A DNA stretch of 64,000 nt from Candidatus Poribacteria bacterium (GTDB lineage Bacteria; Poribacteria; WGA-4E; WGA-3G). How positions within the stretch are numbered: position 1 is the first letter of the stretch; every line of letters begins with the position of its first letter. The stretch lies in contig JAJEAG010000051.1 in the NCBI GenBank assembly GCA_022824265.1, positions 12,818 through 76,817 of the forward strand, in the 5' to 3' direction. A program made the position numbers and the translations under genes. This document shows positions 2,294 through 44,783 of this stretch, piece after piece. The notes under the pieces were generated by a model, which was not told the origin of the DNA, did not search any database, and worked only from the letters and a program-made list of their open reading frames with translations.

Positions 2294-2360
2294 CATTAAT
2301 GTCGTGGCGTTACATCACTATACGATACTATACGATCAAATATTGCTTGCATTTCAATAT

Positions 2361-2387
2361 AATATCATCTAAACTAACACATCAAAT
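2361..2387 (+). promoter_or_regulatory. Conserved upstream motif AATATCATCTAAACTAACACATCAAAT, copy 2
   Basis: Matches 1155..1182 at about 25 of 27 positions, about 30 nt before the ATG at 2418. An AAGGAG ribosome-binding site follows. Confidence 0.3.
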
Positions 2388-2417
2388 TAATAGTATTTCT
2401 CATAAGGAGATAACAGT

Positions 2418-9484: not shown

Positions 9485-10393
9485 ATGGAGGACAATAAAG
9501 TGTTTAAATTTAACCGAACAATTTTCACATTCCTGCTTGTATTTGGTTTGACTGCTACGTTGATGGGTAATGAATGGGCTGACTACTACTTTCCAGACAA
9601 AATCGGAAGTTCATGGGTTTATGTAAATGAAGATGGAGACGAAATAACCCGTACTGCTGTTGAGGGAGAAGAGGTCGACGGAACGACGTATCGCGCCTTT
9701 ACTTATGAACCTGCAATAGATGATTGGGAAAAATATCAGTATGTTATTCATCCTTATCTGTATCAAGTCGGTGAAGAATGGATTACATTTCTTGTTGGCG
9801 ATGAAATAGAACAAGCAACCAAGTCTATCCTTGAGAAAAAACTTAATGAAACAATTGCACTCATGCAGGAACAGATTGCTGGACAACTACCTCCAGGAAT
9901 TACAATTGATTTTGATTTTGATGTTGACCCGCAAGCCCAAGATTTATTCTATCTATTTCCACTTCCGATTACCTATAATGAAGAATGGGTCGCAATGCAT
10001 TTGGACATAACAGTAGATATGACAATGGATATTCAAGGAGCACCTGCTGAACTTCCTGCAGAACTTCAAACAATTACTTCTACTACGAGTATTGAGGAAA
10101 CAGGGGTTATTTTAGGAACAGAAACTGTTGAGACTGAAGCCGGAACCTTTGATGACTGTTTAATAATTGAATATAAAACTAAAACAACAACGGATACAGA
10201 TTTACCCCCAGAATATAAACAAATGATACCAGAAACGCCAACCAACGAGGCAACGACAACGTTATGGTTAGCTCCTAATGTCGGTATTGTCAAATTCAGA
10301 AGTGAAAATGAGAATAGCGATGATGTAGCTACCTTGGAATTAACAAGTTATGAGATCATATCTGATGAATCTGATGAGGAAGAAAAAGAATAA
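9485..10393 (+). CDS. Secreted acidic hypothetical protein, paralog A. The true start is probably the GTG at 9503.
   Basis: Signal-peptide-like FKFNRTIFTFLLVFGLTATLMG, a GGAGG box 11 nt before the GTG at 9503, and an acidic C-terminal tail SDESDEEEKE. Confidence 0.6.
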   Translation: MEDNKVFKFNRTIFTFLLVFGLTATLMGNEWADYYFPDKIGSSWVYVNEDGDEITRTAVEGEEVDGTTYRAFTYEPAIDDWEKYQYVIHPYLYQVGEEWITFLVGDEIEQATKSILEKKLNETIALMQEQIAGQLPPGITIDFDFDVDPQAQDLFYLFPLPITYNEEWVAMHLDITVDMTMDIQGAPAELPAELQTITSTTSIEETGVILGTETVETEAGTFDDCLIIEYKTKTTTDTDLPPEYKQMIPETPTNEATTTLWLAPNVGIVKFRSENENSDDVATLELTSYEIISDESDEEEKE

Positions 10394-10448
10394 TTACTTG
10401 GTTTGCTGAATCTTCTGGATATAAATACAATCTTTTAAGGATAACTAC

Positions 10449-11426
10449 ATGTATAAAAGAACTTGTTTTGTTACTACAATCTTTCTTGTCCTATTTTTGT
10501 GTACAGCACTACGAGGGAATGAAACTTTACAACTTTATTTTCCAAGCACTGTAGGAAGTTTTTGGGTCTATGCAGATCAAGATGGGAATGAGTTCGTGCG
10601 TCATGCAATCGAAGGTGAAGAAATAGACGGTACGGTTTATAACGCATTCAGTTATAACCCTGAATTGGAAGATTGGGTTGATTTTAACCGTCATACAGTG
10701 CCATATCTGTATAATGTAAATGATGAGTGGATTAGTTTATTAGTCGGTGAGGAAATAGAAAACGCTGTTCATGCACGTCTCACCAAAGAATTTGAAACTT
10801 TCTCTGCATTGGTAAAGAATTTATTTGCGAATCTGATTCCGCCTGAAGAGAATGTTACCGTTGACTTTCTATATGATATAGAGGTTGATGCAGATGAACA
10901 TTTCAATTTTTTGCCAGCAGATGCATCTATTGATGATGAATGGGAAACCGTTGAGATAACTGCTACAGTCACCATGTCGTTTGAATTTCATGGTTTACCT
11001 GAGGAATTAGCAGCAGCAGCACCTCCGATACCCCCTGTCACAGCGACTTTTTCTATTCTTGAAACAGGGATAATCCTTGATACAGAAACAGTTGAGACTG
11101 CTGCTGGCACATTTGAAGATTGTTTAAAAATAGAATATCGTACTGAGACCGAACTCACAGCTGACCAACAAGAGGACCCTGAACCTGATAACCCACCCGG
11201 TGAAACAGTTACAACATTATGGTTAGCACCTAATATCGGTATTGTGAAGTATCATCAAGAAGCACAAAAGATGTTTCTTAATGTAATGTCTGACAAAGAA
11301 TTTGCTGAGGCATCAGTACCTGCGGAAGAAGCAGCCGAGATAACTGCTACAACAATCAAGTCATTTGAATTATCAAATTACGAGATTGCCTCTGATCCCG
11401 CACAAGAAGAGGATAGGATCGAATAA
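10449..11426 (+). CDS. Secreted acidic hypothetical protein, paralog B
   Basis: Signal peptide MYKRTCFVTTIFLVLFLCTALRG. Shares motifs YFP..GS.WVY, EGEE.DGT.Y.AF.Y.P, ETG.IL.TETVET.AGTF.DCL.IEY and TTLWLAPN.GIVK with paralog A. Confidence 0.6.
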   Translation: MYKRTCFVTTIFLVLFLCTALRGNETLQLYFPSTVGSFWVYADQDGNEFVRHAIEGEEIDGTVYNAFSYNPELEDWVDFNRHTVPYLYNVNDEWISLLVGEEIENAVHARLTKEFETFSALVKNLFANLIPPEENVTVDFLYDIEVDADEHFNFLPADASIDDEWETVEITATVTMSFEFHGLPEELAAAAPPIPPVTATFSILETGIILDTETVETAAGTFEDCLKIEYRTETELTADQQEDPEPDNPPGETVTTLWLAPNIGIVKYHQEAQKMFLNVMSDKEFAEASVPAEEAAEITATTIKSFELSNYEIASDPAQEEDRIE

Positions 11427-11460
11427 ACTAAACAACCTAATCGAACGCATCGGAGATTGA

Positions 11461-12438
11461 ATGAGCGTTTTCCCTATATATCGTCCCAGACGATTACGTT
11501 CAAATGAAAACCTAAGACGACTCGTCCGAGAAACACATCTGTCTGTAGATGACCTTATATATCCGATGTTTGTTGTTCATGGACAGGACACTGCAAATGA
11601 GATTACTTCCATGCCGGGATGCTACCAATACTCGGTGGATAGACTCGTAGAGGCTGCGAAAGAACTTGTTTCGCTTGGTATTCCTGGAACTATCCTTTTC
11701 GGAATTCCTGAGAATAAAGACTCACACGGTTCTGAAGCATACGCGGATGATGGAATTATTCAACAAGCAGTTCGTGCCATAAAAGATACAGTGCCAGACC
11801 TACTTGTAATCACAGATGTTTGTCTATGTGAATACACCGATCATGGACATTGTGGTATCATTGAAGATGGAGAGGTGCAGAACGATCCAACGCTTGATCT
11901 GCTTGTTCAAGAGAGCGTGTCGCATGCACAGGCAGGGGCAGATGTTATCGCGCCATCAGACATGATGGATGGACGTGTCGGTGCAATTCGATATGCCTTA
12001 GACGAGGAAGGATATGAGAACATTCCAATAATGGCATACTCAGCGAAATATGCGTCTGCATTTTATGGACCCTTTCGTGATGCCGCAGAGTCCGCACCGC
12101 AATTTGGTGATCGTCGTTCGTATCAGATGGATCCAGCAAACTCAGAGGAGGCATTAAGAGAAGTAACGCTTGATATTGAGGAGGGTGCTGATATCGTAAT
12201 GGTGAAACCTGCACTCTCATATCTTGATGTTATAAGTCAAGTGAAAGCAGAATTTCAGATGCCTGTTGCAGCCTATAACGTCAGTGGTGAATATTCCATG
12301 ATAAAAGCAGCCTCACAAAATGGGTGGATTGATGAAAAACGTGTTGCTTTGGAGGTCCTAACGAGTATTAAACGTGCTGGTGCAGACATAATCTTGACTT
12401 ACTTTGCAAAGTCGGTTGTTGAATGGCTTGAGAATTAG
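11461..12438 (+). CDS. hemB: Porphobilinogen synthase (delta-aminolevulinic acid dehydratase)
   Basis: Characteristic N-terminus [20 protein letters not shown], active-site region, and about 325 aa length. Confidence 0.93.
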
Positions 12439-16069: not shown

Positions 16070-17029
16070 ATGAATAAAGTTAACATCGCTTTAATCGGTG
16101 CAGGCGGGATGGCAAACGGTGTGCATTATCCATCTCTATCAGAATTTGAAGACGTGAATCTTGTAGGACTATGTGATCTCGTAGAATCCAAACTCTATAC
16201 AACCGCAGAGAAATTCCAGATAGAACACACATTTACTGACTATCGGAAAATGCTTGAGCAAACAAATCCAGATGCTGTCTACATCTTGATGCCACCACAA
16301 CATCTGTTTCCGCTTGTTATCCACTGTTTATCACAGAAACACCATGTGTTCATTGAGAAACCACCTGGCATCACGCTGCATCAAACAAAGGAAATGACAT
16401 TAGCAGCAGAAAAAAATGGATGTAAAACAATGGTAGGTTTCAACCGTCGTTTTATTCCACTCATGCAAAAAGTCAAGCAGATTGTTGAAGAAAACGGACC
16501 AATAATCCAATGCATGTCAACCTTCCACAAAAACTCACCAAACGCTCTATATTATGATGGCGTTATTGATGTATTGACATGTGATGCTATACACGCTGTA
16601 GATACACTTCGTTGGCTCGGCGGTGGTGATGTCCAAGCAGTTGCGAGTGACATCAACCGTTTCTATTCCGAACGAGAAAATAGTTTCAACGCACTTGTTA
16701 AGTTCACAAGTGGAACGTCCGGATATTTATGCACCAATTGGGCAGTCGGTCGTCGAATCCATACCTTTGAGATGCACGCTCAAAGTATCTCCGCTTATAT
16801 TAATCCAGATGCAGGAGGTAGTGCTTTAATCCATACATCGGAAGGTATAAACGAAATAACGACTGAGGAAGCTGCCGATTCTGACGCAACCCACAAAACC
16901 TATGGTTTTTATGGAGAAAGTAGACATTTTATAGACTGTATTCAACAAGATAAACAACCATTAACCTGCTTCGCTGATGCTGTCAAAACAATGGAACTTG
17001 TTCAAGCTATTTATCAAAATCGCATCTAA
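16070..17029 (+). CDS. Gfo/Idh/MocA family oxidoreductase
   Basis: VNIALIGAGGMANGVHYP Rossmann motif and IEKPP motif. Confidence 0.8.
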   Translation: MNKVNIALIGAGGMANGVHYPSLSEFEDVNLVGLCDLVESKLYTTAEKFQIEHTFTDYRKMLEQTNPDAVYILMPPQHLFPLVIHCLSQKHHVFIEKPPGITLHQTKEMTLAAEKNGCKTMVGFNRRFIPLMQKVKQIVEENGPIIQCMSTFHKNSPNALYYDGVIDVLTCDAIHAVDTLRWLGGGDVQAVASDINRFYSERENSFNALVKFTSGTSGYLCTNWAVGRRIHTFEMHAQSISAYINPDAGGSALIHTSEGINEITTEEAADSDATHKTYGFYGESRHFIDCIQQDKQPLTCFADAVKTMELVQAIYQNRI

Positions 17030-24086: not shown

Positions 24087-26018
24087 ATGAATCCACAACC
24101 CTCGCAAACTACCGAGGTCATCACAAAAAAAGCGATAATTGTTGGTTTAATCCTCGTTATCGTCAACGCATACTGGGTCGGAATAGCAAGTGAACTCTGG
24201 TATGCAGTCTACACACTTGTTTCCCCTTTTTCAAATGCAGTCTTCACGCTGGTAGTCCTACTCGCACTGAATGTTATCCTCCGCAAAATAACACCTCGTT
24301 TCGCTTTTACACCTGCCGAATTGCTACTCATCTACATCATGGTAACGATGGTCTCCACCATATCGGGGCATGCGATGATGGCAATCCTGATGGGTACTCT
24401 TGCCCACCCGTTCTGGTTCGCCACACCAGAAAATGAGTGGGCACAATTCTTTTTACACCACATCCCCGAATGGTTAACGGTACATGAATCCGAATGGTTA
24501 GCTGGTTATTATGAAGGTGAATCAAGTCTATATCTACCTGAGCATATACGTATATGGGTAAAACCTGTACTTATCTGGTCAACGTTTATTCTATTTCTAT
24601 ACGGATCGTTGCTGTGCTTAGGACTGCTGATACGAAAACAGTGGATGGAACGCGAAAAATTAAGCTTTCCATTAACACAGTTACCTTTGCAAATGACAAC
24701 CAACCGCAGTTTCTTCACTACGCGATCGCTTTGGATAGGGTTTGGTATAGCAGCATTGATACGTGTAATTGCAGGTTTGCACGACCTATTTCCAGTAATA
24801 CCCGCTTTGCCTTCAAGTTACCGACTTGATAGACATCTCACAGACAGACCTTGGAACGCTGTCGGTTATGTCTCAATGAACTTCAATCTCGCAATCGTTG
24901 GATTGACCTATTTCATGCCACTTGATCTTGCCTTCTCAACGTGGTTTTTCTTCTGGCTTACACGTGCTGAACGAGTGATTGCAAGTGCAGTCGGTATAAC
25001 AAATATCAGCAAACTACACCTCAATGATCGCGCATCGGGGGCTTGGATAGGAATTGCTGTGCTGACTTTATGGATGGGACGTAGACACATCATAAGGTTT
25101 TTTAGGCATGTTGTCGGACTTGAACGAGGTGATGATAGCAATGAACCTATATCCTACCGAACAACAGCGATTCTTACTATTCTCAGCATGGGTGCAGTAT
25201 TCGTCTTCTGTTACATCGCAGGGATGTCGTTATGGGTGATTGGAGTCTTTTACGGGTTGTTTATTGCATTTGCCTTAGCAATCGGACGAGTTCGCGCTGA
25301 ACTTGGACCACCCTACCATGAGGTAATTGGTATTAATCCACGTCAAATCATGGTCAATACATTCGGTTCGCGTAGCTTAGGAGCAGCAAACCTAACCGTA
25401 ATGACGTTTCTTTACGCATTTAACCGATGCAACCGTTCACATCCAATGCCAAACCAAATTGAATCGCTCAGAATCGGTGATCAAGCAAAGATTCCTGGTA
25501 AGACCCTACTACTATGTATGGCACTTGCAATCGGTGTTGGTGCATTTGCAACGTTCTGGACATATCTGCATGTAGGGTATCATTACGGTGTACTGGCGAG
25601 GTGTCAAGGTCACGTTGGACACTTCGGCTGGGAAAGTTTCAATCCGCTTCAGAGTTGGTTGCAGCATCCAAAAGAAGCGAATGTCAGCGCAATCGTATTT
25701 ATGGGTGCAGGTTTCGTTTTTGTGTTCCTACTTAATTTCTTAAGGACACGTCTGCTATGGTGGACACTACATCCATCTGGATACGTCCTTTCTGGTGCGT
25801 CATGGGGTGGTCTTATCTATTTTTGGTTTCCTGTGATGGTCAGTTGGTTCATAAAGTTTATGATTCTACGATTTTCTGGATGGCAAACCTACCGCAGAGC
25901 AATACCGTTTTTCCTCGGATTAGTTTTAGGTGATTTTGTACCGCGTAGTATACTCAGTATAATTAGTTTTGTGATGAATCTATATATGCCTTCTTCTGGT
26001 GCTGGACATACCCTATAA
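24087..26018 (+). CDS. Large polytopic integral membrane protein (at least 12 predicted TM helices), uncharacterised family
   Basis: 643 aa with many helix-length hydrophobic segments rich in W/F/Y. No catalytic motif recognised. Confidence 0.55.
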   Translation: MNPQPSQTTEVITKKAIIVGLILVIVNAYWVGIASELWYAVYTLVSPFSNAVFTLVVLLALNVILRKITPRFAFTPAELLLIYIMVTMVSTISGHAMMAILMGTLAHPFWFATPENEWAQFFLHHIPEWLTVHESEWLAGYYEGESSLYLPEHIRIWVKPVLIWSTFILFLYGSLLCLGLLIRKQWMEREKLSFPLTQLPLQMTTNRSFFTTRSLWIGFGIAALIRVIAGLHDLFPVIPALPSSYRLDRHLTDRPWNAVGYVSMNFNLAIVGLTYFMPLDLAFSTWFFFWLTRAERVIASAVGITNISKLHLNDRASGAWIGIAVLTLWMGRRHIIRFFRHVVGLERGDDSNEPISYRTTAILTILSMGAVFVFCYIAGMSLWVIGVFYGLFIAFALAIGRVRAELGPPYHEVIGINPRQIMVNTFGSRSLGAANLTVMTFLYAFNRCNRSHPMPNQIESLRIGDQAKIPGKTLLLCMALAIGVGAFATFWTYLHVGYHYGVLARCQGHVGHFGWESFNPLQSWLQHPKEANVSAIVFMGAGFVFVFLLNFLRTRLLWWTLHPSGYVLSGASWGGLIYFWFPVMVSWFIKFMILRFSGWQTYRRAIPFFLGLVLGDFVPRSILSIISFVMNLYMPSSGAGHTL

Positions 26019-31429: not shown

Positions 31430-32431
31430 ATGGCAAAAATACGGATGGCACAATACGGCACGAAACACGGACACGCACGTGGAAAACTGCAGGCAATGCA
31501 TGCTAATCCTAATGTAGAGGTAGTGGGTGTATATGAACCAGATGAAGAACAACGTGCGAAACTTCAGGAAAATGGAAGTTGGTCTTACGATGTGCGTTGG
31601 TACAATGATGCCGCTGAAATGTTAGAGGACGAATCAATCATTGCTATTGCTTCTGAGGGAAACAATGCCGAAAGCTTAAATCAAACTCAAGAGATTGTGA
31701 ATGCTGGTAAGCATGTATGGTATGATAAACCCGCAGGAGAAAACTGGGAGCAGTGGCAACGCATCATCAAGACTGCACAAGAAAAGTCTTTATTGGTGCA
31801 AATGGGGTATATGTTAAGGTATCATTCCAGTTTTAAGAAAGTGACCGACTGGGCAAGATCAGGATTTTTGGGAAATGTATTCTCAGTTCGCGCGCACATG
31901 TCCACAAATATATCACTGGAAGCACGTACACGTATTAGTCAACATATCGGTGGTATTTTCTTTGATTTAGGTGGACATGTTCTTGACCAAATTGTCTGGA
32001 TGATGGGGAGACCTGAAAAGGTCACCAGTTTTCTACGCAATGATGGAGGGTCAGTTGAACCATTCAAAGATAATACTCTCACTGTCTATGAATTTGAGAA
32101 AGGGATGGCGTTTATCACAATTTCTGCTTTGGAACCACGTCCAATGGCACGAAGGTTTGAGGTATACGGCACTGAAGGTAGTGCTATCATTGTTGAACCG
32201 TTTGAACCCGGACACACGATTCGTCTCTGCTTACAAAGTGCAAAGGATGGATATTCACAAGGTGAACAAATTGTCAATATAGATGGAGAGAGTCGCCAAC
32301 GATTGTATGAGTTGGAGTTGGATGCGTTTTTGGCGACAATCGCAGGTACGCAAGAACCTGATAGACCAGTAGAGCATGAATTGTTAGTACAGGAAACACT
32401 TTTGCGCGCAACAAGTGTTATTCCAAACTAA
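31430..32431 (+). CDS. Gfo/Idh/MocA family oxidoreductase
   Basis: IRMAQYGTKHGHARG N-terminal nucleotide-binding motif and WYDKP (EKP-like) motif. Confidence 0.75.
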   Translation: MAKIRMAQYGTKHGHARGKLQAMHANPNVEVVGVYEPDEEQRAKLQENGSWSYDVRWYNDAAEMLEDESIIAIASEGNNAESLNQTQEIVNAGKHVWYDKPAGENWEQWQRIIKTAQEKSLLVQMGYMLRYHSSFKKVTDWARSGFLGNVFSVRAHMSTNISLEARTRISQHIGGIFFDLGGHVLDQIVWMMGRPEKVTSFLRNDGGSVEPFKDNTLTVYEFEKGMAFITISALEPRPMARRFEVYGTEGSAIIVEPFEPGHTIRLCLQSAKDGYSQGEQIVNIDGESRQRLYELELDAFLATIAGTQEPDRPVEHELLVQETLLRATSVIPN

Positions 32432-32541: not shown

Positions 32542-33207
32542 TTATTCTTCTAATCCACCTGCCCATTTGAGACATCCAGTAATGTGTTCGTGGAACCACG
32601 GTTGACTCCAGAGGACATCAGGGTGACCAAGCGCAGTATACATAACACGACCCTTACCGTAGGTATGACACCAACCGAGAGCATAATCATTGTCATCTCG
32701 GTTACCGCGTGAGACATCAATGGAATCATTATCCAACCGCATTAACACATGCGTATTCTCTCGGGACCAATCCTTGAACGTGTATATTTCATCAACAACT
32801 TTGAAACTGTCTCCGAGCATACGAGTAGAGGGATGGTCAGTATCCTCTACGATAACATTGACTTCTTCGTGCCACGGATGTCCATTGAAATATCCACCGA
32901 TCATTTCACCAAATTCTGGCCAATCGTAGCAGGTATCAGTAGCATTATGGATCCCGAAGAATCCCTTACCATTACGGATAAAGTTGAGTAATGCATCTTT
33001 TTGTGAATCATCAAAAGGTAAATTACCAGTAGTTGCAAATGCAACAACATCGTGTTTTGCTAAATTATCTTCTGTGATTCTGTCACAGCGGTGGGTAGTC
33101 GTAACTCTCCAGCCATTTGCAGCACCGATCTCTTTGAGTGCCACTTCTGCATTTGGCAAATAACTATGCTCAAAACCTGCAGAATGACGTAACATCAATA
33201 TGTTCAT
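32542..33207 (-). CDS. ThuA-like protein (trehalose-utilisation family; class I glutamine-amidotransferase-like fold)
   Basis: MNILMLRHSAGFEHSY...GKGFFGIHNATDT...GWCHTYGKGRVMYTALGH pattern typical of ThuA. Confidence 0.75.
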   Translation of the reverse strand: MNILMLRHSAGFEHSYLPNAEVALKEIGAANGWRVTTTHRCDRITEDNLAKHDVVAFATTGNLPFDDSQKDALLNFIRNGKGFFGIHNATDTCYDWPEFGEMIGGYFNGHPWHEEVNVIVEDTDHPSTRMLGDSFKVVDEIYTFKDWSRENTHVLMRLDNDSIDVSRGNRDDNDYALGWCHTYGKGRVMYTALGHPDVLWSQPWFHEHITGCLKWAGGLEE

Positions 33208-36160: not shown

Positions 36161-39100
36161 ATGAGAATACTGTGTAATTACATAATAATCAGTTGTTTGT
36201 TGATATTTATTTCTGTCGGTATTGTTGACGCACAACAGAATCTGGCACAACAAGCTTATGCAATCATGGAGCAATCCTGCCTTATATGCCACGGGGAGAA
36301 CGGCTCATATACAGAGGCACTTATCATTGAATACACAGCACTCATTGATGACGGAAAAGTCGTTCCTAGTGATCCAGACGGTTCTGTGTTCTATCAAAGA
36401 CTCATCGAAACGAATATTGCTAAACGTATGCCGCTCGGACAGCCTGCGCTTGATCCCGCTGCGATTGAAACGATACGTCAATGGATTGCAGCAGGCGCAC
36501 CCGATTGGGATGCCGTGTCAAGACCAGAGACTAACTTCATTACAACTGATACTATGTTTGAAACGATTGAGAACCACGTCAATTCTCTTGCTCCACGTGA
36601 TAAATTGTTTGCACGTTATTTTTCGTTGACACATCTCTATAACGCAGGTGAGACAACTGAAGCACTTCAAGCATATCGGCGTGCCCTTTCGAAACTGATC
36701 AATAGTCTCTCTTGGGGTCGTGAAGTTGTTAAACCAATTCCTATTGATACCGAAGAAACCATTTACTACATTGATCTCCGAGACTATGAATGGGATGTGA
36801 GAAACGACGCATGGACACAGGTTGAGCAGGCATATCCCTACAAAATGATGTACGATGCACCAACACAGATACATCTCCGCGAAAAACTAACGACTCTACA
36901 GCAGGAGATGAACTGTGAAGTTCCGTTTGTTCATGTGGATTGGTTCATCGCAAATGCTTCCTTACCACCCCTCTATCACGATATTTTGCAGCTGCCACTG
37001 ACAGACCGAGAACTGGAAGAAAAACTTGGGATATCAGTTAAAGAAAACATACAGAACGCACCAAGAAAACGTGTCTGGCGTGCAGGTTTCAGTGATTCTG
37101 GAGTCTCAAATCACAACAGAGTTGTAGAACGTCATAATTTTCAACACGGTGCATACTGGAAAAGTTATGACTTCGCGGGAAGTGCCGATTCACAGAATAT
37201 ATTTACCCATCCGCTTAATTTTACACATGACGGTGGCGAAATTATCTTCAACCTACCGAACGGATTACAAGCGTATCTTTTGGTAGATAGTAACGGTAAC
37301 CGGCTTGATGTAGCACCCACAGATATCGTTTCTAATCCTGCTGCAAGTGATCCTGCCGTCCGCAACGGTCTTTCGTGTATCGGTTGCCACACAGAAGGGA
37401 TGAAGACGTTTGAAGACGAGGTGCGTGCTGTAGTTGAACAGGCAAATAATCCGCTTTTTAACAAGGCACGAGCATTAGAACTCTATGTGGAACAAGAGAT
37501 AATGGATGAGTTTGTTGAAGAGGATACGCTACGTTATAGGAACGCTCTTGAGAAAGCGGGTGGTATATTTGGGGGTATTGAGCCGATTCAACGTTTCCAT
37601 GAGGTGTTTCAAGGTGCGCTTGATGCTGCACATGCTGCAGCTGCTGTTGGGTTAGAGACCGATACATTCCTTGAGAGAATAAGCAAAAGTCCAACTTTAC
37701 AAAACTTATTAGGGGCATTGGTGTTAGATAACGGTGCCATCAAACGAGACGCATGGACATCGGCTTTCCACGATGTGATTTCTGCGCTGAATTCTCCTGA
37801 TACCGTACTGCCACCCATAGAACAACCAGAACGTATACCAGGTGCTTCAGTGAATATACCCGATCTGAACCTTCGCGCTGTAATTGAAGAAGCACTCGGT
37901 AAAGCGATGGGTGAGGTTATTACTGTTGAGGATATGGAAAGTTTGACGAGATTTGTTGGGAATGACAAAGGCATTCAAGATTTGACAGGTGTTGAATTTG
38001 CAAAAAATTTAACCTACTTTGAAATTCGACGTAATATGGTCAACGATCTCACTCCAATTGCAAGTTTAACAAATCTGAGTGGATTACGTGTGCAAGGAAA
38101 CAATATATCAGATATATCTCCAATAATTGACCTTAAAAGAATAGGAACACTTGAAATATATGATAATCAAATTTCTGACATTTCCCCAATTGGGGAACTA
38201 ACGAACTTATTTTGGTTGTCTATGACTAATAATCCAATCAATGATATCTCACCACTTGCTAATTTGAAAAAGCTGAACGGAATTCGATTGAATTTCGAAG
38301 ATTCTACTGATTTTTCTCCTATAGCAGAATTAACAAACTTAGAAAGGTTTTTCTTATGGGGTGCTGGTAAACCTATACCTGATTTGACACCCTTAGCTAA
38401 CTTACAAAAATTAAAAATCTTAGACCTACGCGGCGAAGGAGTACCTGATTTGTCTCCTATTGCACAATTAGACAACTTGGGAAGATTTGAATTTTGGGGA
38501 TCGGGTGAAAACCTACCTGATCTGTTACCTTTAGCAGAATCAAATAATTTGAAGGAATTATGGGTCATAAATTGCGGAATCACAGATCTAACTTTTATAG
38601 AGAACTTCACAAGTTTGGAAAGGTTAAATCTTGAACGGAATAATATAACAGATGTGTCACCGTTAGCAAAATTGACAAACTTAAAATGGCTAAAACTTAC
38701 AAACAATCCAATATCTGACTTTTCACCTTTAGCAGAATTCGCACAAACTACTAACGTCCTCACAGGAGATGTTGCAATTAATGATCCCAACCTACGTGCG
38801 GCAATTGCAGTAGCACTTGGTAAAGGCTACAGTAGGATTGTTTCAATTACATTGGAAGAGTTGGCAACTTTGACTCACCTTGATGCTAAAAATGATAATG
38901 AGTCACAGAATGAAAATATCAGCAATTTAACGGGTTTGGAGTTTGCAATAAATCTAAGTTATTTGAATATTGCTGGCAATTCAGTATCAGATTTAACACC
39001 AATCGAAGGTTTAACAGAACTTAGTTTCTTAGATGCTCAAGATAACTTAATATCGGATACAATACCACTTAAAGGATTAACTAATCTACGAGGTTTAATT

Positions 39101-42100
39101 CTTAATCGTAACTTGATTAATGATTTATCACCTCTCATGGGATTAACACAACTTCAAGATTTACGCGTTGCTAATAACCTGATTTCTGATTTTTCTCCAC
39201 TTGCTAAACTCACTACATTGAAAAAGTTAACGATTTCAGGCAGCTCGTTTTCTGACTTATCCATACTAACGGGATTAATTAACCTTGAAGGGTTATGGAT
39301 ATCCCACAGTTCGCTAACCGACCTGTCACCGCTTGTGGAATTAATGAACCTGGAGGGTATGTCCGTTTGGGATTCACCTGTAGCAGATCTATCCCCATTG
39401 GTAGGACTACCAAAACTGAAATGGTTGGATTTTGGTCGCACTCCGATATCAGGTCTTTCACCATTAGCGAATATAGTAACCTTGCGAAAACTGACATTTT
39501 ACGACTGTGGAATAGAAGATCTTTCAGTTCTTAAAGGTTTAACAGAGTTGGTACATATTAAAATGCCACACAACGCGATTTCGGATGTTTCACCGTTAGC
39601 GGGGTTAATACATCTAACGTATTTGGAGTTAGGTGACAATGCAATATCGGATATATCTGCATTGGAACAATTAACCAATTTAGAAACTCTATGGATCAAT
39701 AATAACAACATATCAGACGTATCACCTTTGTCAGAATTGACTAACTTACAAGAACTAAAACTTCGTAATAACCCGATAACAGATTTTTCACCTTTAGTTA
39801 ATCTCTTTGACAATACATATATACTGTATGATCTTATTATTCCAGATGTGAACCTACGTGCAGCGATTGCAGAAGCACTCGGAAAAGAAGATGCTACTGC
39901 CTCAATTACATTTGTAGAAATGGCATCTTTGACAACCTTATCAGCGAGCAATAAGGATATTAAAGATTTAACAGGTATTGAACACGCGATAAATCTGGAA
40001 GAGATATGGGTCGGAAAAAACCCGTTGTTTGATCTTTCACCACTCGCAGGATTGACAAACCTTGTCGGTATAAGTGCTTGGGAAACCCCTATATCCGATT
40101 TGTCGTCCTTGAAAGATTTAACGAAATTGAGATGGTTAGATTTTGGTCGTACCGATGTACATGACTTGTCTTCTTTGAAAGATTTAACGAACTTGAAAAA
40201 ACTGAAGTTCTATGGTTGTGGTGTCATAGAAGATCTTTCACCACTGGAAGGCTTAACAGCGTTGACAGAAATGAACTTTGGAGGCAATCCTATATCCGAC
40301 TTATCTCCGCTGGCAGTGTTAGTCAACTTGGAACATTTAGATTTTCACGGGGATAACATTGCTGACCTCTCACCCTTGGCTGGGTTGAACAAACTGAGAC
40401 ATCTTGATCTTCGTGCTAATTCATTATCTGATGTATCAGCTTTGGCTGGATTAACCAGTTTAACAAACCTTTTACTTGGCGATAACAAAATCTCTGACGT
40501 ATCACCCTTAGCAGGATTATTCAACTTAGAGTATCTATTCCTTAGAGAGAATTTAATAACCGACATCTCTCCATTGAATAATTTGCACAAAGATATATAT
40601 ATTGATTGGCTAAGAAACCCTGGTGCCCCCAAAGAGGGACCGAAATTAGAAGGTCCTTGGTTATGTGTATTGATTCCAGGAAAACGACTCGATAGCGACA
40701 CTGATTTATTAGCAGATACGAGTGATGGGTCCGTAACAGAACATCAGATTGCGACAAAAGGCGCACTGGAAGGAAAAGCTGTAGGAGATAAAAAGTGGAC
40801 ATCACATAGAATATCTCCCACTGGTAGAAATAATTTTAAAGATGTCTTGAGAACTTTCGATGTCCCTCCAGATCAGGATACAAGCGATAATGTTGTTTAT
40901 GCTTGCATAATAATAGGTTCACAGCAAGAACAGAACACAAAATTGCTATTGGGCAGTGAAGGACATCACAAGATTTGGTTAAATGGTGATTTGATACATC
41001 AGGATGTTGGTCTCGATGCCCATGATTCGCGTGATTATGGTATGTTCCTCCCTGTTACCTTGAAACAAGGCGCGAATATTTTATTAGTTGCAATTGATAG
41101 TGGACATTGGATTACAGGACATTTCGGTTTTGAAGAAGGGACTGAGTACACGGTGGTTCCACCTGGTGTTGGTTTCTCATTCACTGCAACAGAGATCTCC
41201 CTCCTTGCAGGTGATACGTTCACACTTAACCTTAACGCTGAAAACATCACTGATTTGGCAGGATGGCAAACAGATATTGCGTTTGACCCGAATGTGCTTG
41301 AAGCAGTTGAAGTCACCGAAGGCGATTTTCTGAAGTCAGAAGGTGGAGATACCTTCTTCCAAGGCGGGACGATTGATAACGCTACAGGGAATATTTCAAC
41401 TATATTTTCGACACGGATATCTGAAAATGGTAGTAGCGGTACAGGTGCATTGCTGTCGGTAATATTCAAGGCAAAAGCAGCAGGTGAAACTCAGGTGACA
41501 TTAGAAAACTTTGAGTTTGTCTCTATCACCGATGACATTATTCCTACTGTCCATCCTAATATTACTATCACTGTGGGAGAATATCCTGCATGGGATGTGA
41601 ATCAGGATGGACGCGTGAGTATTCTGGATCTTATTCTCGTAGCAAGGGATTTCGGATCAGGTGCAACTGCTAACTTACGCACAGATGTAAATCGAGATGG
41701 CGTAATCAATATCCAAGACCTTATCATTGTCGCACAACACATGGGTGAAACGACAGATTCCGCAGCACCTAATGTATATGTAATGGATAGCAAAGAACTA
41801 ACCCCAGCAATAGTACAAGAATGGATTCAACTGGCACAAATAGAAGATGACGGATCGCTCGCTTTCCAACAAGGCATAGAGAACCTTCAACGTCTATTAG
41901 CATCACTGCTTCCTGAAAAGACTGCACTTCTCGCAAACTATCCGAATCCCTTCAATCCTGAGACATGGATACCGTACCAACTCGCGAAACCTGCAGAGGT
42001 TACTTTGACGATTTATACTATAAACGGATCGGTTATTCGGATATTGGCGTTAGGACATCAGGGTGCTGGAATCTATCAGAGTCGTAGTCGTGCTGCGTAT

Positions 42101-42208
42101 TGGGATGGCAGGAATGAGGTTGGAGAATTCGTAGCAAGTGGAGTGTATTTCTATACACTCACTGCAGGTGATTTTATAGCAACCCGACGGATGTTAATTC
42201 TGAAGTAA
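36161..42208 (+). CDS. Giant secreted multidomain protein (2015 aa). Domains: signal peptide; planctomycete-type cytochrome c (PSCyt1-like) heme module with 2 CxxCH; three duplicated blocks of internalin-like leucine-rich repeats; a beta-sandwich region; cohesin-like domain; dockerin; T9SS-type C-terminal sorting domain.
   Basis: Heme module: SCLICHGENG ... VVPSDPDGSVFYQRLIE ... MPLGQPALDPAAIETIRQWIAAGAP, and a second CIGCH. LRRs: about 45 repeats of 22 aa (LTNLxxLxLxxNxISDISPLAxL), each block opening with NLRAAIxxALGK. Cohesin-like: GDTFTLNLNAENITDLAGWQTDIAFDPNVLEAVEV...ALLSVIFKAKAAGETQVTL. Dockerin: DVNQDGRVSILDLILVAR ... DVNRDGVINIQDLIIVAQH. C-terminal: ANYPNPFNPETWIPYQL...VTLTIYTINGSVIR...WDGRNEVGEFVASGVYFYTL...RRMLILK. 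Confidence 0.85.
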   Translation: MRILCNYIIISCLLIFISVGIVDAQQNLAQQAYAIMEQSCLICHGENGSYTEALIIEYTALIDDGKVVPSDPDGSVFYQRLIETNIAKRMPLGQPALDPAAIETIRQWIAAGAPDWDAVSRPETNFITTDTMFETIENHVNSLAPRDKLFARYFSLTHLYNAGETTEALQAYRRALSKLINSLSWGREVVKPIPIDTEETIYYIDLRDYEWDVRNDAWTQVEQAYPYKMMYDAPTQIHLREKLTTLQQEMNCEVPFVHVDWFIANASLPPLYHDILQLPLTDRELEEKLGISVKENIQNAPRKRVWRAGFSDSGVSNHNRVVERHNFQHGAYWKSYDFAGSADSQNIFTHPLNFTHDGGEIIFNLPNGLQAYLLVDSNGNRLDVAPTDIVSNPAASDPAVRNGLSCIGCHTEGMKTFEDEVRAVVEQANNPLFNKARALELYVEQEIMDEFVEEDTLRYRNALEKAGGIFGGIEPIQRFHEVFQGALDAAHAAAAVGLETDTFLERISKSPTLQNLLGALVLDNGAIKRDAWTSAFHDVISALNSPDTVLPPIEQPERIPGASVNIPDLNLRAVIEEALGKAMGEVITVEDMESLTRFVGNDKGIQDLTGVEFAKNLTYFEIRRNMVNDLTPIASLTNLSGLRVQGNNISDISPIIDLKRIGTLEIYDNQISDISPIGELTNLFWLSMTNNPINDISPLANLKKLNGIRLNFEDSTDFSPIAELTNLERFFLWGAGKPIPDLTPLANLQKLKILDLRGEGVPDLSPIAQLDNLGRFEFWGSGENLPDLLPLAESNNLKELWVINCGITDLTFIENFTSLERLNLERNNITDVSPLAKLTNLKWLKLTNNPISDFSPLAEFAQTTNVLTGDVAINDPNLRAAIAVALGKGYSRIVSITLEELATLTHLDAKNDNESQNENISNLTGLEFAINLSYLNIAGNSVSDLTPIEGLTELSFLDAQDNLISDTIPLKGLTNLRGLILNRNLINDLSPLMGLTQLQDLRVANNLISDFSPLAKLTTLKKLTISGSSFSDLSILTGLINLEGLWISHSSLTDLSPLVELMNLEGMSVWDSPVADLSPLVGLPKLKWLDFGRTPISGLSPLANIVTLRKLTFYDCGIEDLSVLKGLTELVHIKMPHNAISDVSPLAGLIHLTYLELGDNAISDISALEQLTNLETLWINNNNISDVSPLSELTNLQELKLRNNPITDFSPLVNLFDNTYILYDLIIPDVNLRAAIAEALGKEDATASITFVEMASLTTLSASNKDIKDLTGIEHAINLEEIWVGKNPLFDLSPLAGLTNLVGISAWETPISDLSSLKDLTKLRWLDFGRTDVHDLSSLKDLTNLKKLKFYGCGVIEDLSPLEGLTALTEMNFGGNPISDLSPLAVLVNLEHLDFHGDNIADLSPLAGLNKLRHLDLRANSLSDVSALAGLTSLTNLLLGDNKISDVSPLAGLFNLEYLFLRENLITDISPLNNLHKDIYIDWLRNPGAPKEGPKLEGPWLCVLIPGKRLDSDTDLLADTSDGSVTEHQIATKGALEGKAVGDKKWTSHRISPTGRNNFKDVLRTFDVPPDQDTSDNVVYACIIIGSQQEQNTKLLLGSEGHHKIWLNGDLIHQDVGLDAHDSRDYGMFLPVTLKQGANILLVAIDSGHWITGHFGFEEGTEYTVVPPGVGFSFTATEISLLAGDTFTLNLNAENITDLAGWQTDIAFDPNVLEAVEVTEGDFLKSEGGDTFFQGGTIDNATGNISTIFSTRISENGSSGTGALLSVIFKAKAAGETQVTLENFEFVSITDDIIPTVHPNITITVGEYPAWDVNQDGRVSILDLILVARDFGSGATANLRTDVNRDGVINIQDLIIVAQHMGETTDSAAPNVYVMDSKELTPAIVQEWIQLAQIEDDGSLAFQQGIENLQRLLASLLPEKTALLANYPNPFNPETWIPYQLAKPAEVTLTIYTINGSVIRILALGHQGAGIYQSRSRAAYWDGRNEVGEFVASGVYFYTLTAGDFIATRRMLILK

Positions 42209-42279: not shown

Positions 42280-42765
42280 TCAAGAATCAGTAGAGGTTGT
42301 AGCTTCTAACTCCGCTTGACATTCAGCACAATGACCAATAATCTCGTTACGGAAGCGAACTGGTTTAAATTGGTGTGCTTCACAAACTGCTTTTTGCAGC
42401 GCATCAATCTGCGGTTCTTTGAATTCAACGATCTGACCACACCGAAGGCAAATAAGGTGAGCATGCTCTTTGAGTGAGTGAATACTCTCGTAACGAGTGT
42501 TTTTCTGTGCATCAATGAATTCTGTTAGCAACCCACTTTGGACAAGTAAAGGTAGCGTCCTATAGATGGTTGGACGGGAAACGTTGAATCCGTTTTGACG
42601 CATATGAACCAAAAGATCCTCTGTCTGAAAATGTCCTGGATATGCGAATACTTGGCTCAACACATCCATTCGCTTTTGAGTCAAACGAAGTCCTGAACTT
42701 TTCAGAAAATCTTCAAACTGTTGTGTAAAATCGTCAACTGTTGTATGTTCTTCATTGGTATCCAT
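42280..42765 (-). CDS. Fur-family metalloregulator (Fur/Zur/PerR)
   Basis: DNA-binding helix SRPTIYRTLPLLVQSGLL and C-terminal CxxC ... CxxC zinc site (ICLRCG ... HCAEC). Confidence 0.85.
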   Translation of the reverse strand: MDTNEEHTTVDDFTQQFEDFLKSSGLRLTQKRMDVLSQVFAYPGHFQTEDLLVHMRQNGFNVSRPTIYRTLPLLVQSGLLTEFIDAQKNTRYESIHSLKEHAHLICLRCGQIVEFKEPQIDALQKAVCEAHQFKPVRFRNEIIGHCAECQAELEATTSTDS

Positions 42766-42837
42766 TTTCTTACCTAATTGATGTATTTTATTGTTGGCGA
42801 CGATTCTTCCTGATGGAATAGAATTAATTTAAAGCTG

Positions 42838-43668
42838 TTATATTAGTTGTGTATTGGCAAAGGATAAAGTCTGTCCGGGTTCGACAAGATTATTCTTCTC
42901 AGCAAGTTTGTAAAAATATTTTAGTCCTTCAATAGATGATTCATCCAAATCGTAATGAATGTGGTGTTGCAAGTATCTTCTACAGAGGTCTTCGGTAAAA
43001 CCGTGCTTAGGTCCTTCAATTCGAGCAATCTCAGGTATTTGCTCAATCCCAAGTGTTTTTGCTTCTAACAACAGATTTGGCACATTCCCAAGTTTCACTT
43101 CTCCTCTGGTGACCCAACAAGCGTATACGAATGGTAAACCTGTTAGTTCATGCCATTCAGTACCAAGGTCAGTACAATATTTTGTAGCACCGAGATTTTT
43201 GAGTGCTGCATCCCCAATAAGTAACACTGCGTCAGTTTTTGCTGATGCTGGATCAATTGAAGGATCACAATTTATGAACGTTGGATACAGTTGATATTTT
43301 TCAGCGAGTATGATTTTTAGCAGGGTAACTGACGAACGCGAACTTGTGTCTAATGCAATTTGCTGAATTTCTTGAATAGGAACACGACTGAATAACTGGA
43401 TACTCAAGACGCTACCGTGTGATCCAATAGCCATGTTAGGAAGGATACGGTAGCCTGCTCCTTTAGCATTTGCTCGAAAGTATTCAATAATCGGGATTAA
43501 ACCAATATCCAATTCACCATCGCTTAATTGGGTTGCAAGACGACTTGGAACCTTGACACTGAGGGAAATCTCTTCTGTTTGAAGTTGTCCGTTCAAAAAG
43601 GGGTAAATAAGCGGCTTAGTATTTAAAAATGACACTGCACCTACTCTCAAGCAGCTTTTCTGATCCAC
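42838..43668 (-). CDS. Futalosine-pathway menaquinone biosynthesis protein, MqnA/MqnD family (probably chorismate dehydratase MqnA)
   Basis: N-terminal LRVGAVSFLNTKPL and periplasmic-binding-protein-like fold typical of the VitK2_biosynth family. Overlaps the upstream radical SAM gene by 22 nt. Confidence 0.7.
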   Translation of the reverse strand: MDQKSCLRVGAVSFLNTKPLIYPFLNGQLQTEEISLSVKVPSRLATQLSDGELDIGLIPIIEYFRANAKGAGYRILPNMAIGSHGSVLSIQLFSRVPIQEIQQIALDTSSRSSVTLLKIILAEKYQLYPTFINCDPSIDPASAKTDAVLLIGDAALKNLGATKYCTDLGTEWHELTGLPFVYACWVTRGEVKLGNVPNLLLEAKTLGIEQIPEIARIEGPKHGFTEDLCRRYLQHHIHYDLDESSIEGLKYFYKLAEKNNLVEPGQTLSFANTQLI

Positions 43669-44783
43669 CTTTTTCCCTCTCGGATGATTTCATTGTAAAG
43701 TGTATCGCGTTCTACTGGAATATAACCTGCCTCTTCAATGAGACGTGTGAGGGCATCAACTGAAACAGCCTCCGGTGTATCTGCACCTGCCATGTGTGTA
43801 ATCTTTTCCTCAGTCACAGTGCCATCTATGTCATCTGAACCGAAACTTAGAGCAATTTGTGCAGTTTTCAATCCTGTCATAATCCAATAAACTTTGATAT
43901 GCGGTATATTGTCCAGCATCAGACGTGATACAGCTATGTTACGTAAATCTGTTAAACCTGTCGTTGAAGGCAGATATGCCATACGCGTGTTAGCAGGATG
44001 AAATGCCAGCGGGATAAACGTTACAAAGCCACCCGATTTATCTTGTTGTTCTCGTAATCTGATGAGGTGGTCAACCCTATCCTCATTAGTTTCAAGGTGT
44101 CCATACAGCATCGTCGCGTTAGTCGGAATATTCAGTTTATGCGCAATACCATGAATTTCAAGCCAACCTTCAGCACTTAGTTTACCGGGACATATTTTTT
44201 CCCGTGTCTCTTCAGCAAATATCTCTGCACCACCACCGGGAAGTGAATCCAAACCTGCATCACGGAGTTGTGTCAACACCTCCTCTATGGACATTTTGAA
44301 TATACGTGAAAAATGATGAATTTCAACGGCAGTAAAGAATTTTAGGTGGACATCGGGCATCCGTTCTTTGAGTCCATGGATAATCTGTAGGTAATAATCA
44401 AATGGTAATTTTGGATGTAGACCACCAACGCTATGAATTTCGGTACAGCCATGTTCAATAGAATACATCGCTTTATCTAAGAATTCATCAACGCTCATCT
44501 CCCACGCGCCTTCTGTTTGCATGTTTTTTCGGGCAAAGGCACAAAAATGACATCTGGCATGAAGTATACATACATTTGAATAATCTATATGTTGATTAAT
44601 GTTGAAATACGCAACATTGCCATTCATGCGTTGGCGTACATAGTTTGCGATAAAACCGACCCCGGTAATATCCGAACTTTCGTAAAGCGTTACTCCCTCC
44701 TCAAAAGAGAGCCGCTCCTCTGCTTTAACTTTTTCATAGATAGCAGGTAACTTAGGATCGGTAAGTGGGTTATAGTTCTCCAT
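43647..44783 (-). CDS. Radical SAM enzyme of the MqnE/MqnC (CofH-like) family
   Basis: N-terminal architecture RLSFEEGVTL...NQHIDYSNVC....C..CAF and a TIM-barrel radical SAM core. The cysteine spacing reads CX5CX2C (CILHARCHFC). Confidence 0.75.
   Translation of the reverse strand: MENYNPLTDPKLPAIYEKVKAEERLSFEEGVTLYESSDITGVGFIANYVRQRMNGNVAYFNINQHIDYSNVCILHARCHFCAFARKNMQTEGAWEMSVDEFLDKAMYSIEHGCTEIHSVGGLHPKLPFDYYLQIIHGLKERMPDVHLKFFTAVEIHHFSRIFKMSIEEVLTQLRDAGLDSLPGGGAEIFAEETREKICPGKLSAEGWLEIHGIAHKLNIPTNATMLYGHLETNEDRVDHLIRLREQQDKSGGFVTFIPLAFHPANTRMAYLPSTTGLTDLRNIAVSRLMLDNIPHIKVYWIMTGLKTAQIALSFGSDDIDGTVTEEKITHMAGADTPEAVSVDALTRLIEEAGYIPVERDTLYNEIIREGKRWIRKAA

Follow-up and report, generated by a model that had tools for sequence, protein, structure and literature searches.

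The gene described here lies on the forward strand of a 64,000-nucleotide stretch of a Candidatus Poribacteria contig, called the window below, and encodes a protein of 2015 amino acids (Table 1). Its ATG start is placed five codons past an upstream in-frame stop, with the Shine-Dalgarno-like sequence GAGGGAG upstream. The gene is monocistronic: on one side lies an ORF of 174 aa in divergent orientation, on the other a convergent gene of the FUR family. All the domains named in the original prediction are present, from the signal peptide and haem module through the leucine-rich repeats (LRRs) and cohesin to the dockerin and sorting tail. When the translated ORF is compared with Pfam and NCBIfam, the expected LRR_4, Cohesin, Dockerin_1 and TIGR04183 models rise above their cut-offs, but the protein's own PSCyt1 match and the Pfam Por_Secre_tail match remain below.

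Table 1. Features of the gene and of the protein it encodes, from N- to C-terminus.
Feature	Residues	Coordinates	Strand	Remarks
Whole gene	1-2015	36161..42208	+	2015 codons + stop
Signal peptide	1-24	36161..36232	+	MRILCNYIIISCLLIFISVGIVDA followed by QQ; read from the sequence
PSCyt1-type class I c-type cytochrome module	29-115	36245..36505	+	
Haem site 1	40-44	36278-36292	+	CLICH; within the PSCyt1-type module
Conserved core, ~430 aa	120-545	36518..37795	+	No Pfam family
Haem site 2	406-410	37376-37390	+	CIGCH; inside the conserved core
LRR array 1	565-865	37853..38755	+	Cap + 12 repeats of ~22 aa
LRR array 2	873-1218	38777..39814	+	Cap + about 14 repeats; 1-to-2 junction in frame in L003
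LRR array 3	1227-1475	39839..40585	+	Cap + 10 repeats; 2-to-3 junction kept in L005
Beta-sandwich	1485-1672	40613..41176	+	Sub-threshold but consistent matches
Cohesin	1673-1800	41177..41560	+	Pfam match 1683-1789; PDB sequence matches
Dockerin	1810-1872	41588..41776	+	Two calcium-binding loops, DVNQDGRVSILD and DVNRDGVINIQD
Conserved dockerin-tail linker	1873-1925	41777..41935	+	
Sorting domain, FlgD-Ig / T9SS type A	1926-2015	41936..42205	+	NYPNPFNPETWIPY...GVYFYTL...RRMLILK, then stop

The same single-ORF architecture is found in 71 complete ORFs at the 77 loci examined in Candidatus Poribacteria genomes, long-read chromosomes included. These ORFs have a median length of 1420 aa and a maximum of 2313 aa, and 65 of the 71 contain exactly two CxxCH motifs. 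Paralogues share the same hydrophobic leader, ending in ..VDAQQNLAQ, and the copies are often in tandem, with at least 589 family matches in species-representative genomes. The protein is an ordinary member of this large paralogous family, which is confined to Candidatus Poribacteria and follows a fixed plan: a signal peptide, a two-haem module, one to three LRR arrays, a jelly-roll, a cohesin, a dockerin, a linker and a FlgD-Ig/TIGR04183 domain. It had been called chimeric and a singular combination of domains, which is not borne out, as this single-gene architecture is standard in the family. The clue to lineage, seen at first as a mixture of FCB-like and planctomycete-like traits, resolves to Poribacteria, since the same architecture recurs across these genomes and is confined to them. 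No paper in the literature searched describes the family, and for Poribacteria in connection with dockerins, cohesins or type IX secretion the sole relevant paper is that of Kamke et al. (2014; PMC3909097).

Such a gene could arise as an artefact of assembly, with two or three genes (haem-LRR, LRR, and LRR-cohesin-dockerin-tail) joined via their similar LRR regions. The protein-database searches, which gave “halves” alone, none longer than 1005 aa, point in this direction, as do the split genes at some loci (L002, L008, L020 and L026) and the two closest MAG contigs, which end inside the LRR region. However, the long matches missing from the protein searches include the self match, so their absence points to a limit of the search and not to biology, and the split-gene loci resemble cases of frameshift or fragmented gene calling. 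The complete architecture is uninterrupted in the 71 ORFs, which come from independent assemblies, many of them chromosome-level. The sequence of the gene is free of N and of tandem DNA repeats, its internal DNA repeats reach no more than 69% identity, and an exact copy of the 2015-aa protein is found on two contigs of a public collection. Two independent orthologous contigs carry the junctions between the arrays in frame, L003 from array 1 to array 2 and L005 from array 2 to array 3 and on to the stop, after which the downstream synteny is the same. This makes an assembly chimera highly improbable, and effectively refuted. The gene is native and correctly assembled, because L003 and L005 keep the array junctions in frame, and because its GC content matches that of the window (40.5% as compared to 41.2%) and none of its internal repeats are near-identical. 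In the first protein searches, “haem-LRR” and “LRR-cohesin-dockerin-tail” proteins were seen on common contigs, from which arose the idea of a two-gene operon fused only here (“A+B fusion”). This was rejected by ORF analysis, a single long ORF being the norm in the 77 loci.

A cytochrome-c module had been predicted with one CxxCH at about residue 40 and a CIGCH at about residue 405. The protein contains exactly two such motifs, CLICH at residues 40-44 and CIGCH at residues 406-410, both invariant across the family. Its own PSCyt1 score of 15.7 bits falls short of the cut-off of 22, and the module is assigned to this type because its relatives match the model, namely 59/59 paralogues and 43/50 distant homologues, the best at 2.9e-17. 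C40, C43 and H44 show little or no variation and M90-P91 is conserved, giving via the family the marks of a class I cytochrome, with Met90-Pro91 as the candidate axial ligand of haem 1. Profile searches of the PDB find FoxE and CcoP. The core that follows is recognised by its signature motifs (RYFSLTHLYN, DWF, NRvvERH, YWKSYDFAGS and HDGGEiIFNLPNGLQ). Both CxxCH motifs, Met90-Pro91 and about 60 more residues remain invariant down to 31-40% identity, including in Planctomycetes and in one Neorhizobium protein, whose gene lies directly 3' of a NOX-like Ferric_reduct/FAD/NAD gene. The two-haem module forms 3832 clusters at 50% identity; it is widespread and has no family annotation. Planctomycete proteins annotated “mono/diheme cytochrome c family” share about 530 aa of it at 38-45% identity, and they keep both CxxCH motifs, the Met-Pro motif and all the signature motifs. 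Their architecture combines PSCyt1 and the uncharacterised core with TPR, WD40, Sel1 or FGE-sulfatase domains, or with an N-terminal kinase or FHA domain, and unlike the poribacterial family they lack LRRs, cohesin, dockerin and sorting tail alike. These tail-less relatives are probably periplasmic.

An AlphaFold model was obtained from an alignment of close paralogues and planctomycete homologues. The beta-sheet subdomain that this model places around haem 2 weakly resembles cytochrome P460/c'-beta. The two share no similarity in sequence, Foldseek finds no match in the PDB for the predicted structure, and a profile of residues 292-432 retrieves only generic CxxCH matches from the PDB sequences. 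Unlike cytochrome P460/c'-beta, the subdomain sits within a mostly helical domain of 430 aa. A match to the fatty acid cis/trans isomerase CTI (PF06934), taken up as a possible pointer to what the core does, was rejected, as it scores 24.1 bits for a cut-off of 25, covers only positions 78-153 of the 692 in the model and is limited to the stretch adjoining the cytochrome. Partial CTI matches likewise occur in 49/59 paralogues, and the simplest reading is that a cytochrome-type N-terminus is shared.

LRR_4 matches the protein at 3e-86 over 18 stretches, above the curated Pfam cut-off. About 36 LRRs of 22 residues are counted, in three separate arrays (12+14+10) that each have their own cap, “PD.NLRAAI..ALGK”. 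The repeat type is thus the internalin-type one predicted, but the number falls short of the roughly 45 repeats first proposed. Listeria internalins also have 22-residue LRRs and a helical N-cap, but they carry one array instead of three in tandem, and their Ig-like inter-repeat region and LPXTG/GW anchor are absent here. Against the NCBIfam models of these internalins the protein reaches high partial scores that nevertheless stay far under the cut-offs, with 457.5 for a cut-off of 1050 (InlH/InlC2) and 449.6 for a cut-off of 1600 (InlA). The protein is not a member of the internalin family, with which only the 22-residue repeat type is shared. The beta-sandwich announced after the LRRs is found there. 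Its sub-threshold matches are to RhaB_D2, Glyco_hydro_2_N, BetaGal_ABD2 and, in the PDB, the sugar-binding domains of GH2 enzymes, and it is probably a galactose-binding-like jelly roll. Longer paralogues have up to three copies of it.

The cohesin and the two-repeat calcium-binding dockerin, as predicted, both exceed the curated cut-offs. Cohesin (PF00963) scores 40.5 bits for a cut-off of 24.1, and PDB cohesins from ScaB and anchoring proteins are matched with E values of 9e-6 to 3e-4. Dockerin_1 (PF00404) scores 34.6 bits for a cut-off of 22.9 over residues 1812-1860, PDB dockerins are matched at E about 8e-8, and both loops have the form DxNxDGxxxxxD. The best PDB matches are modules of the cellulosomal scaffoldins ScaB (Acetivibrio cellulolyticus), and SdbA and CipA X-dockerin (Clostridium thermocellum). 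As in scaffoldins, one secreted polypeptide unites a cohesin, a calcium-type dockerin of two loops and a C-terminal surface-anchoring module. In contrast to them, the protein has a single cohesin, it has a T9SS-type tail instead of an SLH or sortase anchor, and its host belongs to a Gram-negative-type phylum. To our knowledge, LRR arrays and a two-haem module are found in no described scaffoldin. A scan of the window found no second paralogue and no other ORF bearing a dockerin or the tail. In other poribacterial genomes, paralogues have genes for putative glycoside-hydrolase-like, dockerin-ended proteins nearby. Their neighbours encode LRR-GHL15-dockerin and DUF6259-dockerin proteins (both by Pfam Dockerin_1), GHL15-dockerin-tail and LRR-GHL15-propeller-tail proteins, and a WD40 protein with dockerin-like segments (phmmer). 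No classical cellulase family (GH5/9/48) was seen among the scanned neighbours. The LRR-GHL15-dockerin neighbours suggest a cohesin-dockerin scaffold on the outer surface. Judged by its cohesin, dockerin and C-terminal sorting domain, the protein is most reasonably read as a surface attachment protein able to self-assemble.

The Por/T9SS sorting domain expected at the C-terminus is recognised by the NCBIfam model TIGR04183 Por_Secre_tail (29.1 bits for a cut-off of 23, residues 1927-2013), but Pfam Por_Secre_tail (PF18962) stays below its cut-off (19.6 for 27). When the tail is scanned alone, FlgD_ig reaches 30.1 bits for a cut-off of 27, and the closest solved relatives by sequence in the PDB are FlgD Ig-like domains and not T9SS cargo tails. 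In this protein, as in 89/95 related ORFs, the tail runs to the final residue, and it is also present on 24 ORFs with no haem module, some of which are possibly fragments of split family genes. This terminal position and the occurrence on haem-less ORFs are expected of a general sorting signal. The protein shares with TIGR04183 cargo, such as gingipains and Flavobacterium surface adhesins, an N-terminal signal peptide, a terminal beta-sandwich of about 90 aa, and a large, modular, repeat-rich build. It differs from such cargo in that its host phylum lies outside Bacteroidota/FCB and has no demonstrated T9SS. Kamke et al. (2014; PMC3909097) had already described the same tail in numerous repeat proteins of Poribacteria.

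From these elements a model of how the protein works can be proposed, in which the order of the domains is read directly from the sequence and the remaining steps are what we infer. The protein would cross to the periplasm by the Sec pathway and receive its two c-type haems there. The terminal domain would then direct the folded protein to the outer surface and hold it there, by a T9SS or some equivalent. The two-haem module would form a distal, redox-active head, in which the His/Met class I cytochrome may relay electrons to or from the second haem, held in the P460-like beta-sheet subdomain. That likeness suggests a role in binding or converting a small molecule, and not in plain electron transport. 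The LRR arrays and beta-sandwich may bind protein or glycan targets, for example the sponge matrix. The cohesin would capture partners that end in a dockerin, such as the LRR-GHL15-dockerin proteins whose genes adjoin paralogues in other genomes, and the protein's own dockerin would plug into the cohesins of sister proteins, so that many paralogues could build a cellulosome-like surface lattice. We hold with moderate confidence that the protein is a native member of the Poribacteria family working as a surface scaffold with a two-haem head.

A somewhat unlikely alternative is a redox protein that is periplasmic or tethered to the outer membrane, its FlgD-Ig-like tail being structural or anchoring and processed by another pathway, since on this reading Poribacteria lack a T9SS. 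The maturation of c-type haem proteins in the periplasm fits this, as do the planctomycete homologues of the haem module, which do without the tail, and the tail's own resemblance to FlgD Ig-like domains and its score under the Pfam cut-off. Cohesin-dockerin pairs, however, are normally extracellular, the tail passes the curated TIGR04183 cut-off, and its place at the very end of the protein in 89/95 cases and its presence on unrelated cargo-like proteins are how a sorting signal behaves. Also in favour of the alternative, a scan of approximately 38 ORFs of the window (64 kb of genome) against Pfam or NCBIfam finds no T9SS component, and Kamke et al. (2014; PMC3909097) found no Por secretion structural genes in poribacterial single-cell genomes, but those 2014 genomes are incomplete assemblies. 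It is quite improbable that the protein is primarily a host-directed, “eukaryote-like” effector, whose LRRs bind sponge receptors and modulate phagocytosis or immunity while the haems and cohesin-dockerin pair are accessory. LRR proteins are enriched in genomes of Poribacteria and other sponge symbionts and have been proposed as mediators of host interaction (PMC3909097), and the variation from one to three LRR arrays among paralogues fits diversifying recognition. Yet conservation within the family is highest in the haem module and C-terminal cassette and not in the LRRs. The haem module also occurs in free-living Planctomycetes, on other repeat scaffolds, and in a soil rhizobium, so its role is not host-specific. 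The effector reading moreover overlaps with the surface scaffold and does not exclude it.

The surface scaffold with its two-haem head may be taken further, to a proposal that we consider unlikely as a whole: the 530-aa module would represent a novel family of haem enzymes or gas/redox sensors that act outside the cytoplasm, with a class I cytochrome wired to a P460-like ligand-binding haem, displayed by the dozen on a self-assembling cohesin-dockerin lattice after T9SS-like export in a phylum with no canonical T9SS. If true, such export would imply an undescribed outer-membrane sorting machinery. The family provides a concrete set of cargo for the question left in 2014 of what secretes the TIGR04183-tailed poribacterial proteins, and it flags a widespread two-haem module still without family annotation or structure. 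It also suggests that cohesin-dockerin assembly has been co-opted, in a lineage other than the cellulolytic Firmicutes, to build the cell surface of a symbiont. Poribacteria rank among the most abundant sponge symbionts that have not been cultivated, and with each family gene occupying 4-7 kb, the number of copies and their frequent tandem arrangement amount to a substantial investment in this surface system.

The giant protein is read in the window translation as a single unbroken ORF, whose ATG lies five codons past an upstream in-frame stop and is preceded by a Shine-Dalgarno-like GAGGGAG motif. Curated profile searches recover the LRR, cohesin, dockerin and T9SS-type tail domains of the original prediction above their cut-offs. 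The roughly 45 leucine-rich repeats counted there come down to about 36, of 22 residues each, in three separate arrays of 12, 14 and 10, each with its own “PD.NLRAAI..ALGK” cap ahead of it. Both calcium loops of the dockerin are canonical (DVNQDGRVSILD and DVNRDGVINIQD), and the cohesin and dockerin match the cellulosomal ScaB, SdbA and CipA X-dockerin in the PDB (E 1e-5 to 8e-8). The beta-sandwich gives sub-threshold yet consistent matches to galactose-binding-like jelly rolls (RhaB_D2, the GH2 sugar-binding domain and BetaGal_ABD2). As for the tail, the sorting signal that had been predicted is recognized by the NCBIfam model, and FlgD_ig also passes (30.1 against a cut-off of 27), while Pfam's Por_Secre_tail stays below (19.6 against 27). 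The protein contains exactly two CxxCH motifs.

Features of the giant protein, of the window around its gene and of related loci
Feature	Position	Strand	Score or remark
Giant ORF	window 36161..42208	+	2015 codons
CLICH	aa 40		
CIGCH	aa 406		
LRR_4	18 stretches		3e-86
Cohesin	aa 1683-1789		40.5 bits (gathering score 24.1)
Dockerin_1	aa 1812-1860		34.6 bits (22.9)
TIGR04183 (NCBIfam T9SS type A sorting domain)	aa 1927-2013		29.1 (23)
GFO/IDH/MocA-family oxidoreductase genes	window 1208-3506, 8250-9326, 16070-17029, 31430-32431		five genes, two adjacent
Tandem paralogous ORFs	window 9485-12438	+	302/325/325 aa
DUF6785 + DUF6784 protein	window 24087-26018	+	643 aa; DUF6785 1.6e-163
ThuA gene	window 32542-33207		
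FUR-family regulator, then futalosine-pathway-like genes	window 42280-44783	-	convergent
Odd contig-end bases	L003:10712-10959; L005:1-136		
Dockerin/tail genes flanking paralogues	L041:12085-16150; L066:6675-9170; L053:5995-7968; L059:4754-7729; L078:4647-7715; L065:5823-7775; L073:12299-14248; L051:14037-16115		other poribacterial genomes
Neorhizobium petrolearium module gene (L083)	NZ_CP123001.1 506493-509966		1157 aa

The giant ORF is not an assembly chimera, a possibility that had been raised with the prediction. It holds zero N and no DNA-level tandem repeat was found in it; identity between its internal DNA repeats does not exceed 69%, and at 40.5% its GC content is in line with that of the window (41.2%). 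Two contigs of the public collection carry the exact 2015-aa protein, and for one of them the location is given, a 125-kb metagenome scaffold. L003 and L005, MAG contigs of other samples, carry orthologues; both are broken within the LRR region, and the junctions between arrays are in frame: L003 (86% nucleotide identity) covers the passage from array 1 to array 2, and L005 (93.5%) that from array 2 to array 3 and on through the beta-sandwich, cohesin, dockerin, tail and stop, with the same genes downstream. At their broken ends, about 130-250 bases match neither the window nor the LRR frame. They are probably artefacts of the assembly graph where repeats join, and they create a false stop in a 947-aa gene call (P0001).

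Protein searches with the N-terminal 560 aa and the C-terminal 575 aa return more than 2900 and more than 5700 proteins, respectively; the named matches of both are all Candidatus Poribacteria, the longest being 1005 aa. The 2015-aa query itself is absent from both lists, though present in the exact-sequence look-up. These searches seem to leave out long proteins, and the family therefore resembled two separate half-size families. In one genome the two “halves” are adjacent genes, which suggested a local fusion of two genes. This is rejected, since 71 complete single ORFs are found at 77 loci; where the gene is split, a frameshift or a fragmented gene call seems to be the cause. These loci are the best 77 of at least 589 matches of the N-terminal alignment to species-representative genomes, several coming from the same genome, and all lie in poribacterial MAGs save a few “uncultured bacterium” and one Nitrosopumilus-labelled bin. 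The locus in that bin (L074, CBDCWS010000001.1, “Nitrosopumilus sp.”) encodes a typical family member with 65% identity, and the likeliest explanation is that a poribacterial contig was wrongly binned with an archaeal genome. After translation of the 77 loci and location of each domain per ORF, the 71 complete ORFs all show the order haem module, LRR, beta-sandwich, cohesin, dockerin, linker and tail. Measured from stop to stop, they have a median length of 1420 aa, the longest reaching 2313 aa; 65 of them have exactly two CxxCH, and tandem copies of the genes are frequent. Within this large paralogue family the 2015-aa protein is therefore nothing unusual, if on the long side. What had been taken for a singular chimera is a lineage-wide, undescribed family, and the mixed lineage clue, FCB-like in the tail and planctomycete-like in the cytochrome, resolves to Poribacteria. 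In the longest paralogues (L012, L013, L023 and L075; 2189-2313 aa) the beta-sandwich occurs three times between LRR arrays, and LRR plus beta-sandwich seems to be a block duplicated within the family.

The giant protein was aligned separately with paralogues (61-79% identical) and with planctomycete proteins (36-43% identical). Across both alignments the two CxxCH motifs are invariant or nearly so, and Met90-Pro91 and about 60 further residues are likewise kept (RYFSLTHLYN, DWF, NRxxERH, YWKSYDF, HDGGExIFNLPNG). The first ~115 residues are a class I cytochrome of the PSCyt1 type: the giant protein alone is sub-threshold for this profile (15.7 against a cut-off of 22), while 59 of 59 paralogues and 43 of 50 distant relatives match it (best 2.9e-17). 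FoxE, CcoP and cytochrome c-552 are among the matches in PDB profile searches with the module. For the ~430-residue core that follows, neither a Pfam family nor a solved structure of related sequence turned up; as the sole query against 1.84 billion cluster representatives, it matches 3832 clusters at E<=1e-3, of which 1482 reach E<=1e-30. The distant carriers of the module are Planctomycetes (Gemmataceae, Planctomycetia), whose proteins continue after it with TPR, WD40, Sel1 or FGE-sulfatase domains or have kinase or FHA domains ahead of it. By its sequence, the haem module belongs to an unannotated family that Poribacteria share with Planctomycetes. It is also found with all motifs, at 31% identity, in a “c-type cytochrome” on the megaplasmid of Neorhizobium petrolearium, directly downstream of a NOX-like Ferric_reduct/FAD_binding_8/NAD_binding_1 gene; there are hints that this neighbour is a real redox partner. 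Caspase-TPR-peptidoglycan-binding and OmpA genes lie upstream as well.

With close paralogues only, AlphaFold gives a module model with a pLDDT of 49.8; adding the planctomycete sequences yields a confident one (pLDDT 88.9, pTM 0.83). Five of the 13 best structural matches of this model are cytochrome c'-beta/P460 proteins (8brk 6.8, 6hiu 5.9, 7s5o 5.8, 6amg 5.0, 2je3 4.6), and FoxE (6.3) is also among them. The predicted strands at aa 305-382 lie ahead of the CIGCH helix in a P460-fold-like order. Foldseek found no match for the model, and a profile of aa 292-432 found no P460 sequence, so that the modeled likeness of the core to P460 is taken as a lead only. A CTI match is sub-threshold (24.1 against 25) and is confined to a stretch next to the cytochrome, 76 of 692 model positions.

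In 89 of 95 related ORFs the tail extends to the final residue. It also occurs on 24 ORFs without a haem module, a number that may include pieces of split family genes. At other loci, the neighbours of paralogues encode LRR-GHL15-dockerin proteins (GHL15 is hypothetical glycosyl hydrolase 15) in which the dockerin comes last, at the very C-terminal end, like that of cellulosomal enzymes, as well as GHL15-dockerin-tail, LRR-GHL15-YWTD propeller-tail and DUF6259-dockerin proteins and, in a phmmer scan, a WD40 protein with dockerin-like segments. Taken together, this amounts to a full poribacterial repertoire of cohesin, dockerin and tail proteins; its cohesin comes from the giant family, and the flanking dockerin proteins could dock on it. 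A scan of the window detected neither a further paralogue nor another protein with a dockerin or tail.

A mechanism can be proposed from this architecture. The protein would be exported by Sec and receive its haems in the periplasm, after which the tail would bring it to the outer surface and keep it in place. There the cohesin would capture dockerin-ended partners, while its own dockerin would insert into sister cohesins to build a lattice; the LRR and jelly roll may bind protein or glycan targets. In the distal redox head, the His/Met cytochrome would relay electrons to or from the second haem, which may bind a ligand. The least certain step of all this is the export route. The TIGR04183 tail occurs on many poribacterial repeat proteins, and structural genes for Por secretion were not found (Kamke et al., 2014; PMC3909097). 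No T9SS component occurs among the ~38 window ORFs scanned, and the closest solved relatives of the tail by sequence are FlgD Ig-like domains. A periplasmic or otherwise sorted protein is therefore a serious rival, though we consider it rather unlikely; the giant protein would qualify as type A T9SS cargo from its sequence features, and surface display remains our preferred reading.

Among known systems, the closest analogue in how it would work is a cellulosomal scaffoldin of the anchoring or adaptor type. The giant protein differs from these in having one cohesin, a T9SS-type anchor replacing SLH, LRR arrays and a haem head. An internalin identity is rejected, as the scores are far under the cut-offs and the wall anchor is lacking. 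Each part is of a known kind except the ~430-aa core, and in the literature searched no paper was found linking Poribacteria with cohesin or dockerin. With this family, an important symbiont phylum has a large surface system that is still unexplored, and one that offers a direct handle on a poribacterial secretion question standing since 2014.

The giant gene's own neighbours are housekeeping genes (ParA/NUBPL, GGACT, FUR, the futalosine pathway and PriA). The FUR-family gene is immediately downstream and is followed by futalosine-pathway-like genes (VitK2_biosynth; a radical SAM with CofH_C), an order kept in L005. Elsewhere in the window, the first two of the three tandem ORFs match a DUF3108-like domain in a scan of those two, and the oxidoreductase genes fall within 32 kb.
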